64,000 bases of DNA from Mycobacteriales bacterium. GTDB lineage: Bacteria > Actinomycetota > Actinomycetes > JAFAQI01. Below, piece by piece: positions 49,510 to 54,755 of this stretch. Below the pieces are notes generated by a model. The model was not told where the DNA came from and ran no database searches. It saw only the letters and a list, made by a program, of their open reading frames with translations. Positions within the stretch are counted from its first letter, which is position 1, and the number at the start of each line of letters is the position of its first letter. The stretch lies in assembly GCA_036267875.1 (NCBI GenBank), contig DATAVE010000113.1:48881-112880 (forward strand), read 5' to 3'. Made by a program: the position numbers and the translations under genes.

Positions 49510-49797
49510 GTGGACCCCGAAGACGAGAAGCTCGTCACCCTTGCCCGCTCCGCGCGGGCGCGCAGTGGCGCCGCAGAGGGTGCCGCGGTGCGTGACGACA
49601 TCGGCCGTACCTACGTCGCGGCTACGGTCGAGCTTCCCGCGCTGTCCTTGACGGCGCTTCAGGCGGCGGTTGCCGCGGCCGCGTCCAGCGGCGTAAAGCG
49701 ACTCGAAGCCGCCGTCGTCGTGACGGCCGACGCTGGTGCCGACAGCGGCGTGCTTGCCGGACTGGGCGATCCGGCATTTCACGTGGTCGCCGAGTGA
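49510..49797 (+). CDS. Conserved small protein upstream of era (cytidine-deaminase-like fold, probably non-catalytic)
   Basis: 95 aa at the conserved corC-X-era position. It lacks the H/CAE...PCxxC deaminase zinc ligands. Confidence 0.55.
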   Translation: MDPEDEKLVTLARSARARSGAAEGAAVRDDIGRTYVAATVELPALSLTALQAAVAAAASSGVKRLEAAVVVTADAGADSGVLAGLGDPAFHVVAE

Positions 49798-50699
49798 CGG
49801 CTGAGCCGGTCGACGGATTTCGGTCCGGCTTCGCGTGCATGCTCGGGCGGCCCAACACCGGCAAGTCGACGCTGACCAATGCACTGGTCGGGACCAAGGT
49901 CGCGATCACCAGTGACCGCCCGCAGACCACGCGTCACGCGATCCGCGGGATCGTCTCGCGGCCCGATGGTCAGCTGGTGCTGATCGACACTCCCGGCTTC
50001 CACCGGCCACGTACGTTGCTCGGCCAGCGCCTCAACGACCTCGTTCGCTCGACGGTGGCCGAGGTCGACGTCGTGATCTTCTGCGTACCCGCGACCGACA
50101 AGGTCGGTCCGGGCGATCGGTTCATTGTCGAGCAGCTGCAGGCGATCGCGGGTCGGACGCCGGCGATCGCGGTGATCACTAAGTGCGACGCCGCCGGCAA
50201 GGACATGGTCGGCGAGCGCCTCATCGACGTCTCGAACATGGCGGACTGGGCCGAGGTCGTGCCGGTGAGCGCAGTCGACGGTTTCCAGGTGAGCCTGCTC
50301 GCCGACCTGCTGCTCGCGCGACTTCCGGAGGGTCGGCCGCTCTATCTCGACGACGAGCTGACCGACGCGCCGGAGGCCGTGATGGTCGCGGAGCTGGTGC
50401 GAGAGGCGGCGCTGTCCGGCGTACGAGATGAGCTGCCGCACTCGATCGCAGTAGTGGTCGAAGAGCTCGTGCGCACCGACAAGCAGATCGACATCCATGC
50501 GGTGATGTACGTCGAGCGCGACAGCCAGAAGGGCATCGTCATCGGAGTCGGCGGCGAGCGACTACGCGTCGTCGGGACCGAGGCGCGCCGCCACATCGAG
50601 GCGCTGCTCGGCGCGAAGGTCTACCTCGACTTGCGGGTCAAGGTCGCCAAGGACTGGCAGCGCGACCCGAAGCAGCTCAACCGCCTCGGCTTCTCCTAG
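49794..50699 (+). CDS. era: GTPase Era
   Basis: G1 GRPNTGKST, DTPG, and TKCD (NKxD), plus a KH domain C-terminus. GTGA overlap with the upstream ORF. Confidence 0.95.
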   Translation: MTAEPVDGFRSGFACMLGRPNTGKSTLTNALVGTKVAITSDRPQTTRHAIRGIVSRPDGQLVLIDTPGFHRPRTLLGQRLNDLVRSTVAEVDVVIFCVPATDKVGPGDRFIVEQLQAIAGRTPAIAVITKCDAAGKDMVGERLIDVSNMADWAEVVPVSAVDGFQVSLLADLLLARLPEGRPLYLDDELTDAPEAVMVAELVREAALSGVRDELPHSIAVVVEELVRTDKQIDIHAVMYVERDSQKGIVIGVGGERLRVVGTEARRHIEALLGAKVYLDLRVKVAKDWQRDPKQLNRLGFS

Positions 50700-50718
50700 C
50701 CGGCTGAGGCGCCGGCGG

Positions 50719-53124
50719 CTAGCGCATGACGGCTAGTCCGTCGAGCGCGACGGTCGTTCCGGAGGAGAAGGTGCCACGCACTCCGGCGCACTTGAAGATG
50801 AAGGTGCGCGCTTTCGCCTTGGTATGAATGCCGCCGAAGATCGGGATCGTCGTGTGCGCCGGTGCCGAGCTGAACAGGTCATAGGTGCCGACGTGGCTGT
50901 TGCCGAGGAAGACCGCGAGCTTGCCGTACGTCGGTCCGGTGCGGACCAGTAGCTCGTACGTCCTACCCCTTGCCGTCGCTGTTGCTGACGCGCCCTTGGT
51001 AGAGGTCTCGACGTGTGAGCCGGCGTAGTCGGTCGGGCTGGATACGGTCCGCCACGACCCGCTCAGCCGGAACGTCGTGTCGTCGTAGGGCACCGCAAGG
51101 GTCTGCTTAGCGGCGGTGGCGTGCTTTCCGGCCGCGTCGTACTCGGTGACGCTGACGACGTAGGTCCCGCCGGCGACTCCGGTGAAGTGGTACGAACCGG
51201 TGGTCGGAGCGGTCTTGGCGGTGTAGAGCGGCGCGGCAGCGCCGACGTGGGTGATCGTCACCGATGCGTTCGATGCGAGCAGCGCGCCGGCACCGGGGTT
51301 CGCCGGATGCCAGCGGACCAGGACGTTCGTCGCGTGCTTGCGTACGTGCGGGTCGGCGAGGGCGATCGTCGCGGTCGCGACTGGCGCCTTCGGTGAGAAC
51401 ACGTACGGCGCAAGCGCCGGCCACAACGGCGCTCCAAGACCACTCACCGTGTCGAATCCGGTCCGGGCATGGACTGGCAACACGGCGGAGGCGTGATCGG
51501 CGTCGGCTTGCGCGCCGTTGCTGCCAGCGGTCACGTCGCGGAAGGAGGCGTCACGCTTGCCGGCGTAGGCCGAGTAGAGCGCGCTGTGGATGTCGCCGAC
51601 CCCGCTCGTCGCACCATGCGCCGCCAGCATGTTCGTGAACAACGCGGCCGCGACAGGTGCCGCCAGGCTCGTGCCGCCGACCGTCAAGGTCGCCGGGTTC
51701 GTCAGCGGATTGCAGAACAGCGGCAGCTGGCCCTTGCATGTTGCGTTCTGGTCGGTCGTCAGGATCTGGAAGCCGGTCGCCGGGTCGCCGTTGACGGCGA
51801 TGTCCGGCACCAGGCGGCGCGGCTGGGTGCCGAAGTCGCCCTTCTTCCCAGTCGATGTCGTGAATGGGTCCTTGCCGATCCCGCTGCTCTGGTACGCCGG
51901 CATCGGGAAGGTGTTGGACTCGCCGCCGCCGGAACCACCCGTGCCGGAGCTCGACTGGCAGGCCGCCGGCGTGGTGCACGTCCAACCTGTGTCGGCCCAG
52001 TTGGTGCCGTCGTTCGCGGCGCTCCCACCGACGGCGGTGAGCCGGGTGGCGCCGACTCCAACGACCTCGGGAGAGCTCGCCGGGTAGTCCACGGCAACCT
52101 TGGTCGAGGTCTTCGAGCGGCCGCAGTCGTAGATGCCGTCGTCACCGGTGGCCGCGAAGACGGTCACGCCCGCCGCGTCCAGCGACTGCAGCAACGCCTC
52201 GACGGACTTGATGGAGTCACCCGGGAAGTTCGATGTGAAGTCGTCCTCGCACGCACCCCACGAGGTGGTCAGCGCAGCGATGTGCGGGTCCCCGCCGTCG
52301 GCGGACTTGCCCTGACCCTGCGTCACGTCGGCGAGGACTTGGCTGAGCGCCTGGATGTAGCCGCCAGAGCTGTTGGTGTCGAAGTAGGCGCGTTGATTGG
52401 CGTGCGGTGCAGTCGACAGCAGCGCCTCTTGATCGAGGTCGACCTCCTCATCGAGGTCCGTCGTGGCTGGCGAGATCTTGCTCGAGGCGACCGCGAACTG
52501 CTTGTACTGACCACTCGCCACCGGGTCCGGCGTGATGTTCACCGAGGGCTGCGCGGCGTACTTGCTGAGGTCCACGTCGTTCCAGTTGGCGAACTGCAGT
52601 GACGCGATCGTCAGGTTGCCGTTCTTGTCGCGACCCTCGGACGGCGACTGGAGCGGCTCCGCGTAGGCGTTGCGGAAGTCGGTGCCGTCTAGTGCTGCAT
52701 GCGTGGTGAACAGCGGTGTCGCGCTCGTGTCGGGCAGCACGGCGGAAGCGACTTTTGAGAGCGTGCTGCCGAGCATGCCAAGCGTCGCGTCGAGGACCGA
52801 CAGGGGTGCAGTCGCGTTGATCGTCCAGGCCGTCTGGTGGCCGATATCGAAGCCGGCAGCGGTGAGCGCCGAGCGCACGGTCTGATGCGCTGCCGCGTCC
52901 GGCAGGGCTGCCTCGAGCTGTCGGACCCGCCGCGCGTGGTTGTCACCTGTCGCGTCGGCGAGCTTGGCGAGCAGCGCGGGATTGGGGGCCTTCAGCAGCA
53001 CGGTGATCGAGGTACGAGGGCCCGAGGCCAGAGCGGCGGGCGTGCTCATCACGGCTGCCGCGAGCACGATCGCGCCGACGAGTGCGGCGGCGCGTGGCAG
53101 GCGGCTGACGATCGGCCGAGTCAC
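50719..53124 (-). CDS. Secreted S53 (sedolisin/kumamolisin-like) serine peptidase with pro-domain and long C-terminal beta-rich extension
   Basis: Motifs TSWGACEDD, FAATGDDG and GGTSLAAP (Ser nucleophile). Signal peptide in MTRPIVSRLPRAAALVGAIVLAAAVMSTPAALA. Proposed GTG start at 53124; the track start at 53427 would overlap recO on the opposite strand. Confidence 0.75.
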   Translation of the reverse strand: MTRPIVSRLPRAAALVGAIVLAAAVMSTPAALASGPRTSITVLLKAPNPALLAKLADATGDNHARRVRQLEAALPDAAAHQTVRSALTAAGFDIGHQTAWTINATAPLSVLDATLGMLGSTLSKVASAVLPDTSATPLFTTHAALDGTDFRNAYAEPLQSPSEGRDKNGNLTIASLQFANWNDVDLSKYAAQPSVNITPDPVASGQYKQFAVASSKISPATTDLDEEVDLDQEALLSTAPHANQRAYFDTNSSGGYIQALSQVLADVTQGQGKSADGGDPHIAALTTSWGACEDDFTSNFPGDSIKSVEALLQSLDAAGVTVFAATGDDGIYDCGRSKTSTKVAVDYPASSPEVVGVGATRLTAVGGSAANDGTNWADTGWTCTTPAACQSSSGTGGSGGGESNTFPMPAYQSSGIGKDPFTTSTGKKGDFGTQPRRLVPDIAVNGDPATGFQILTTDQNATCKGQLPLFCNPLTNPATLTVGGTSLAAPVAAALFTNMLAAHGATSGVGDIHSALYSAYAGKRDASFRDVTAGSNGAQADADHASAVLPVHARTGFDTVSGLGAPLWPALAPYVFSPKAPVATATIALADPHVRKHATNVLVRWHPANPGAGALLASNASVTITHVGAAAPLYTAKTAPTTGSYHFTGVAGGTYVVSVTEYDAAGKHATAAKQTLAVPYDDTTFRLSGSWRTVSSPTDYAGSHVETSTKGASATATARGRTYELLVRTGPTYGKLAVFLGNSHVGTYDLFSSAPAHTTIPIFGGIHTKAKARTFIFKCAGVRGTFSSGTTVALDGLAVMR

Positions 53125-53241
53125 GATGTCAGACCTCGCTCTTGACCGGGACGCTGGTTTTCCAACCGTACCCGCGCAACTCGCCACAACTCGTAAGCCA
53201 CACATTGAGCCAACGAGCGGCTCGGCAGAGAGAATCGCTGA

Positions 53242-53988
53242 GTGGCGCTGTATCGCGACGAGGCTGTCGTCCTTCGTACCCAGAAGCTTGGCGAGGCCGA
53301 TCGCATTGTCACGCTGCTGACGCGGCGTCACGGCCGGGTGCGTGCGGTCGCGAAGGGCGTCCGGCGTACCGGATCCAAGTTCGGGTCGCGCGTCGAGCCG
53401 TTCATGCACGTCGATCTGCAGCTGCACACCTCGAACATCGAGGGCAAGGGTGGCCTCGACATCGTCACGCAGGCTGAGACGCTCGCGCCGTACGGCGAGG
53501 CGATTGCAGCGGACTACGGCCGCTACACCGCCGGCACGGCAGTGCTCGAGACCGCCGAGCGGCTCACGGCCGAGGAGCGCGAGCCGTCACTTCGACTGTT
53601 CCTGCTGATGGTCGGCGCCTTGCGCGCGCTGGCCGAGGGTGAGCACACGCCGACGCTCGTGCTCGACGCCTTCATCGTTCGGGCGCTCGCCATCTCGGGC
53701 TACGAGCCGGTGCTCGACGACTGTGCGTTGTGTGGCACCGAAGGACCGCATCGCGCGTTCGTCGTGAGCTCGGGTGGTGTCGTGTGCAACAGCCACCGTC
53801 CCCCCGGTGCTCCGATGGTCTCGGTCGACACGCTGCAGCTGATGGCAGCGCTGCTGAGCGGTGACTGGTCGATCGCCGATGCGGCGAGCCCGAGGACGCA
53901 ACGCGAGACCAGCGGGGTTGTTGCGGCATACCTGCAGTGGCACCTGGAGCGAGGTCTTCGCTCGCTGCGGCTCGTGGAACGCATCTAG
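53242..53988 (+). CDS. recO: DNA repair protein RecO
   Basis: N-terminal OB fold ([30 protein letters not shown]) and a C-terminal zinc motif CALCG...C. GTG start. Confidence 0.9.
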
Positions 53989-54755
53989 TGGGGAGCAAAG
54001 TCCGGCTGCCGACGGCGCATCCCTCCGGCGCGAAGCCGCCGAAGCTCCCGGCGCAGCTGGTGCCCAACCATGTCGCGATGGTGATGGACGGCAACGGCCG
54101 CTGGGCCAAGGAGCGTGGGCTGCCGCGGACGGCCGGACACGAGCAGGGCGAGAGCTCACTATTCGATGTCGTCGAAGGCGCGATCGAGATCGGCGTGAAG
54201 TGGCTGTCGGCGTACGCCTTCTCGACCGAGAACTGGCGGCGGTCGCCCGACGAGGTTCGGTTCCTCATGGGGTTCAACCGTGACGTCATCCGTCGGCGGC
54301 GCGATGACATGCACGCGATGGGCGTACGGGTGAGGTGGGCTGGCCGTCGGCCCCGGCTGTGGAAGTCAGTGATCGCTGAGCTCGAGACGGCCGAGGAGCT
54401 CACCCGGAACAACCGGGTGCTGACGCTGACGATGTGCGTCAACTACGGCGGCCGCGCCGAGATCGGTGATGCAGCTGCGGCGCTTGCCCGGGATGTCGCG
54501 GCCGGCTTGGTCGATCCGTCGAAGGTCAACCATCGGGTGCTGGCTCGCTATCTCGACGAGCCGGACATGCCCGACGTAGATCTGTTTGTGCGGTCCTCGG
54601 GCGAGCAGCGCACCTCCAACTTCTTGTTGTGGCAGTCGGCGTACGCCGAACTCGTCTTTCAGGACAGGCTCTGGCCGGACTACGACCGCCGAGATCTGTG
54701 GGCAGCAATCGATGAGTACGCGAAGCGCGATCGTCGTTACGGTGGCGCGCTGTGA
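53988..54755 (+). CDS. uppS: Isoprenyl transferase (cis-prenyltransferase UppS family)
   Basis: [22 protein letters not shown] and [15 protein letters not shown] motifs. GTG start overlapping the recO TAG by 1 nt. Confidence 0.9.

Follow-up and report, generated by a model that had tools for sequence, protein, structure and literature searches.

An S53 pro-peptidase of sedolisin/kumamolisin type, predicted to be secreted and extended by two C-terminal beta domains, encoded between era and recO of a Mycobacteriales bacterium

Introduction

Among the described peptidases of family S53, pro-kumamolisin and kumamolisin-As (MEROPS S53; PDB 1T1E, 1SIO), which stem from a thermoacidophilic Bacillus-type organism, combine a pro-domain with a catalytic domain of subtilisin-like fold and possess a Glu-Asp-Ser triad, an oxyanion Asp and the residues of a Ca site. 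Sedolisin of Pseudomonas sp. 101 (PDB 1GA1, 1NLU) and human tripeptidyl-peptidase 1 (TPP1; PDB 3EE6, 3EDY) belong to the same family and have the same catalytic apparatus. Enzymes of family S53 have been linked with acidic habitats (PMC6411800).

The genomic slot considered here lies next to era. In Mycobacterium tuberculosis it is occupied by amiA2 (Rv2363), which lies on the other strand than era (Rv2364c) and runs towards it (PMC9363015), and the statement of the original prediction that an amidase fills this slot in other actinobacteria is correct for that species. In the present study a stretch of 64,000 nucleotides from contig DATAVE010000113.1 of a Mycobacteriales bacterium, hereafter the window, was analyzed with regard to the gene in this slot, its product and its start codon, as well as its distribution among related genomes.

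Results

Gene and neighbourhood

The complete CDS of the S53 pre-pro-peptidase extends over positions 50719..53124 of the minus strand, encodes 801 aa and terminates with a TAG stop at 50719-50721. It is identical to NCBI protein P0001; the public NCBI (nr) protein of 100% identity and length 801 bears the name 'MAG TPA: hypothetical protein VHW74_10445 [Mycobacteriales bacterium]'. The gene has a GC3 of 0.86, like the adjoining genes, and is placed between era (49794-50699, plus strand; NF000908, 351 bits vs. a cutoff of 237) and recO (53242-53988, plus strand; TIGR00613, 118 bits vs. a cutoff of 48.7), with isoprenyl transferase (uppS, 53937-54755) after recO, which bears out the predicted position of an 801-aa minus-strand gene between era and recO-uppS. 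At the convergent junction with era (50697..50721) the two stop codons flank an imperfect GC-rich palindrome (TAGCCGGC...GCCGGCGGCTA), and 19 nt lie between the ORFs; peptidase/era junctions are similarly tight in orthologous loci of the window's clade (-1 to 87 nt). An ORF of 377 aa on the plus strand inside the peptidase gene (51469-52602; GC1 0.88, GC3 0.61) was rejected as a shadow ORF. No second S53 copy was detected in the window by tblastn, and the window as a whole gave no match to Rfam and no tRNA.

In the related genomes fetched, about 30 species of Frankiaceae or "Mycobacteriales" soil MAGs had an S53 gene in this slot between recO and era, at 31-82% identity. The arrangement, with the peptidase gene pointing away from recO and towards era, was found in loci L001, L002, L008-L022, L025, L026 and L034 as well as in distant loci at 31-37% identity. 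Its presence in the slot of so many species identifies the gene as an old resident and not as an insertion: it is a native, probably vertically inherited occupant of this slot in a Frankiaceae-like soil lineage, and nothing evident links its function to era or recO. The neighbour-joining tree computed from a MAFFT alignment is rough, and its deep nodes were not relied on; the slot genes fall into three or more deep clades, which may go back to one ancestral gene or to replacement in situ by paralogues.

Family assignment

Scanned directly against Pfam and NCBIfam, the 801-aa protein gave no S53, S8 or Pro-kuma (PF09286) match. Because relatives at 40-50% identity match PF00082 or PF09286, this reflects a limit of model sensitivity and is no contradiction, and since curated models miss the protein, homology was demonstrated via PDB sequences, profiles and a structure model. 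The model Pro-kuma_activ (PF09286) is passed or approached by relatives, which are already annotated as S53/kumamolisin-type, several under the name 'S53 family peptidase' (NCBI) and several as 'kumamolisin' (JGI).

In a PDB sequence search the single sequence matched kumamolisin-As at E=6.6e-19, with the motifs EVDLD, GDDG and GGTS aligned. A family profile was built on 115 relatives, as were the counts of residue invariance; it matched pro-kumamolisin 1t1e at E=1e-49 across pro-domain and catalytic domain, kumamolisin-As at ~1e-46, sedolisin at ~3.5e-32 and TPP1 at ~8.9e-18, and retrieved no S8 chain from PDB at E<=0.01. The motifs named in the original prediction as SWG..E, AATGDDG and GGTSLAAP were all recovered, as SWGACE (residues 288-293), (A)ATGDDG (325-330) and GGTSLAAP (483-490). 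Four residues, each with its minus-strand codon checked and invariant in 115/115 relatives, align with the catalytic apparatus of kumamolisin: Glu227, the general base (Glu78; 52444..52446), Asp231 of the triad (Asp82; 52432..52434), Asp328, the oxyanion-hole Asp in GDDG (Asp164; 52141..52143), and Ser486, the nucleophile in GGTSLAAP (Ser278; 51667..51669). D530, D558, G562 and G564, likewise invariant in 115 sequences, align with the Ca-site loops of kumamolisin (FxDIT Asp, GxDxxxGxG); by this alignment the family's Ca2+-binding residues are kept, and a Ca site is predicted.

The AF2 model (pLDDT 89.2, pTM 0.85) superposes on kumamolisin-As with TM 0.83-0.86, and the modelled fold is subtilisin-like alpha/beta, nearest to S53 structures. 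Foldseek ranks 1-16 were all S53 (E 1e-25 to 1e-19, TMt 0.65-0.86), headed by 1t1e over 591 columns, whereas the first S8 match appeared at E=8e-10, and the S53 matches surpassed those to S8 by 10-15 orders of magnitude. The gene product is an ordinary pro-peptidase of sedolisin/kumamolisin type, predicted to be secreted, with two additional C-terminal beta domains; the predicted S53 class stood up to the HMM check, by profile and not by direct Pfam or NCBIfam scan.

Domain organisation

Residues 1-33 (MTRPIVSRLPRAAALVGAIVLAAAVMSTPAALA|SG; 53026..53124, minus strand) were read manually as a Sec-type signal peptide, with R3/R8/R11 in the n-region, an h-region of Ala/Val/Leu (hydrophobic 12-25) and the site A31-L32-A33|S34. 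This tripartite pattern with AXA is kept in orthologues and agrees with the canonical signal peptide predicted from GTG 53124; AF2 pLDDT is <50 for residues 1-30, and in the signal region neither a lipobox Cys nor a twin-Arg motif was seen on reading. The predicted pro-domain was recovered as a pro-kumamolisin-type activation domain (residues 34-~132), which together with a linker (133-143) covers 52696..53025 on the minus strand and was delimited by the profile, by Foldseek and by the relatives' Pfam matches; from profile position 33 onwards, the family profile aligns with residues 36-547 of 1t1e, and the linker is disordered in the model (pLDDT <50). The S53 catalytic domain (residues ~144-575; 51400..52695, minus strand), recognised by its sequence, profile and structural match to kumamolisin-As, carries three lineage-specific insertions (residues ~381-403, 421-436 and 458-478) and has a pI of 4.5 vs. 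9.9 for the whole C-terminal tail.

This tail had been predicted as a beta-rich extension of about 250 residues; it is beta-rich but shorter, with 226 residues (576-801), and the structure model that had been proposed as a check resolves it into two well-folded beta domains (pLDDT 96.5). An FN3/Ig-like beta-sandwich (residues 576-680; 51085..51399, minus strand) is followed by a basic C-terminal beta-jelly-roll resembling CBM6/35/36 and CE2_N (residues 681-801; 50722..51084, minus strand), which in the model is superposable on CBM35 and CE2_N structures. The core residues W605, Y655, P679, D681, W691, G734 and D795 are invariant in 87 sequences, and the best structural matches of the tail are carbohydrate-binding modules (CBMs) of xanthan, xylan, mannan and chitosan enzymes.

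A phmmer search with the tail retrieved 850 representative proteins at E<=1e-3. CE2_N was present in 19/19 multi-repeat matches scanned, four of which carry peptidoglycan hydrolase domains (SpoIID, NlpC/P60 twice, Amidase_3), and every repeat in these proteins can be aligned over its full length with the jelly-roll, at 26-31% identity. In the Pfam scan the jelly-roll of the window itself remained below every model, and its link to CE2_N is, in terms of sequence, a transitive one, through phmmer relatives that score on CE2_N. Since such CBM-like jelly-rolls are promiscuous, with repeats also on a fucosidase, a beta-helix protein and S8 peptidases, binding to the cell wall is one option among others.

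Start codon and upstream region

Comparative sequence evidence identifies GTG 53124 as the true start: in the alignment the orthologues start at the same place, and GC3 in the peptidase frame is 0.53 in 53125-53241 vs. 0.84-0.92 downstream of 53124. The original prediction had moved an annotated start at 53427, which would overlap recO, to this codon. The start itself was right and the overlap real (186 nt), but 53427, the most upstream GTG of the maximal ORF (50719..53427, minus strand, 902 aa), is no annotated start, and nothing was re-assigned, because the 801-aa protein of NCBI already begins at GTG 53124.

Between the peptidase gene and recO lies a divergent intergenic region of 117 nt (53125..53241), in which orthologue indels are not multiples of three. 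It contains, 40 nt upstream of the start, a -10-like hexamer TACGGT of TANNNT type (53165..53170, minus strand), identified by orthologue alignment as part of a putative promoter; the hexamer sits in an invariant element GGTA(C/G)(G/C)GT, the sole invariant block among 12 aligned orthologous intergenic regions. The divergent promoter region that had been proposed thus has its 117-nt gap and a conserved -10-like box. A conserved leader element, GGTC(A/G)AGAGCGAG(G) (53134..53147, minus strand), with GAGG 9 nt before the GTG, is the probable ribosome-binding region. The leader motif GGTCRAGAGCGAG is unique in the window, and 8/9 exact matches in the fetched loci lie upstream of orthologue starts; a regulon signal was rejected on these grounds. 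A scan for the sigma-70 consensus and terminators, of which the former suits high-GC actinobacteria poorly, detected no promoter; its one hairpin lies within a gene and is irrelevant.

Discussion

As a whole, the observations are best explained by an S53 pre-pro-enzyme that is exported, acid-activated and held on a glycan, transcribed from its own promoter and encoded by a vertically inherited resident of the slot, a reading to which we assign a probability of about 0.8. Transcription would proceed from the 117-nt gap common with recO, presumably by way of the -10-like TACGGT at 53170-53165. After Sec export and cleavage of the signal peptide behind Ala33, the pro-domain would serve as folding aid and inhibitor and, as in pro-kumamolisin, would be removed autocatalytically on a drop in pH, to leave a mature enzyme that begins near residue 145 and may, with an optimum at acidic pH, cut proteins or peptides as an endopeptidase or a tripeptidyl-peptidase. 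By its basic tail of FN3 and jelly-roll domains the enzyme would be kept on a glycan surface, which is most likely the cell wall of the producer itself or, failing that, a polysaccharide of the environment.

Several other explanations concern the nature of the protein, its N-terminus and its position. An S8 subtilase with Asp-His-Ser triad could be suspected from weak Pfam Peptidase_S8 matches in some relatives, from source names such as 'S8 family' or 'Subtilase family' for some of them, and from the fold common to S8 and S53; yet the profile found no S8 chain within its threshold, the Foldseek matches to S8 trail far behind, and the invariant Glu/Asp/Asp/Ser set aligns with kumamolisin E78/D82/D164/S278. 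With profile, Foldseek and catalytic residues all pointing to S53, the assignment to S8 is effectively refuted. A translation start further upstream, at GTG 53427 (902 aa) or ATG 53205 (828 aa), is conceivable inasmuch as the frame is open to 53427 and the orthologue P0016 has been called with a longer N-terminus. It is nevertheless very improbable: GC3 falls from 0.86 in the gene to 0.53 in 53125-53241, the 902-aa form would run into recO on the opposite strand, and the orthologue indels break the frame, the distance from the -10-like box to the start being for example 48 nt in the window vs. 47 nt in L008. Furthermore, the likeness of 'AGTVG' to P0016 arises from in-frame reading of a conserved DNA box, GGTACGGT, and a longer form would bury the signal peptide. 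Hardly more credit can be given to a functional coupling of the peptidase to era, recO or uppS as the cause of its locked position. The position is indeed kept in relatives down to 31% identity, but the gene is read from the other strand, away from recO and towards era, behind a conserved promoter-like box of its own; an unrelated amidase occupies the M. tuberculosis slot in the same topology (PMC9363015), closely related paralogues occur in unrelated contexts, and flanking essential genes suffice to explain the stability.

The role of the tail leaves more room for alternatives. That it aims at an environmental polysaccharide (plant, fungal or EPS) rather than the own wall, in a foraging peptidase that attacks glycan-embedded proteins in acidic soil, is a possibility to be taken seriously, albeit the weaker one. 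The enzymes to whose CBMs the tail is structurally closest, the origin of the source and its relatives as soil MAGs and the tie of S53 enzymes to acidic habitats (PMC6411800) speak for it, whereas peptidoglycan hydrolases among the sequence relatives of the jelly-roll and the strongly basic tail (pI 9.9), which suits anionic wall polymers, speak against it; neither of the latter points is decisive. It appears unlikely that the tail is a C-terminal pro-region or a secretion or folding helper, clipped after export to release a free soluble enzyme of ~43 kDa. One slot orthologue (L034, 617 aa) is entirely without the tail and S53 relatives of ~580-600 aa exist, from which it follows that the tail is dispensable for catalysis. 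A sedolisin precursor of Xanthomonas has a C-terminal extension that can be removed, which was counted in favour of clipping; on such extensions in bacterial S53 enzymes the literature searches yielded no usable report, only papers on fungal genomes. On the other hand, two domains folded as well as those of the window protein (pLDDT 96.5), seven core residues from W605 to D795 invariant in 87 sequences, and homology of the jelly-roll to repeats on mature cell-wall hydrolases argue for a tail that is retained. A further-reaching proposal, which we regard with considerable doubt and as quite unlikely, would make the peptidase no foraging exoenzyme but a housekeeping protease anchored to the wall in the Frankiaceae-like lineage, its tail sitting on the own envelope glycan by a module common with peptidoglycan hydrolases; a conserved envelope role of this kind, if true, would account for a gene locked between recO and era though its copies are only ~31% identical.

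What follows from these results is practical rather than conceptual, and the understanding of S53 enzymes, era and recO is unchanged. Pfam and NCBIfam overlook a sizeable clade of S53 peptidases from soil actinobacteria, whose members often carry the name 'hypothetical protein'; annotation with the 115-sequence profile would correct this. The single-copy CE2_N/CBM35-like jelly-roll ties these peptidases to a widespread repeat family on cell-wall hydrolases and leads to the hypothesis of surface retention, and the conserved -10-like box with its leader provides a defined promoter candidate.

Comparison with known systems

Of the described enzymes, kumamolisin is closest to the window protein, which shares its pro and catalytic architecture, fold, triad, oxyanion Asp and Ca-site residues (profile E=1e-49, TM 0.72-0.86) at an identity of just 22-28%. 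In comparison with kumamolisin, the catalytic domain is ~70 residues longer, with the three insertions and the conserved Cys pairs C292/C334 and C383/C389, the pro-domain and linker are shorter, and a 226-aa tail of FN3 and jelly-roll domains is added; furthermore, the window protein derives from the MAG of a mesophilic soil actinobacterium. Sedolisin and TPP1 (Foldseek E ~1e-20) are farther from it than kumamolisin.

For the tail, comparison can be made with CBM35, CBM6 and CBM36, with Pfam CE2_N and with the xanthan-binding module MiXBM (PDB 2VZP, 2WAA, 7EHG), from which the jelly-roll differs in that it falls below the Pfam models and is attached to a peptidase instead of a carbohydrate-active enzyme. 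The SpoIID, NlpC/P60 and Amidase_3 wall hydrolases (P0137, P0150, P0167, P0172) have repeats that align with it and follow the same logic of a binding module plus a hydrolase; they bear 3-6 tandem copies with peptidoglycan-cleaving domains, whereas the window protein has one copy behind an FN3-like spacer together with a peptidase. Finally, amiA2 of M. tuberculosis occupies the same slot with the same topology, convergent with era (PMC9363015), but encodes an unrelated cytoplasmic amidase, and what the two genes have in common is position, not homology.

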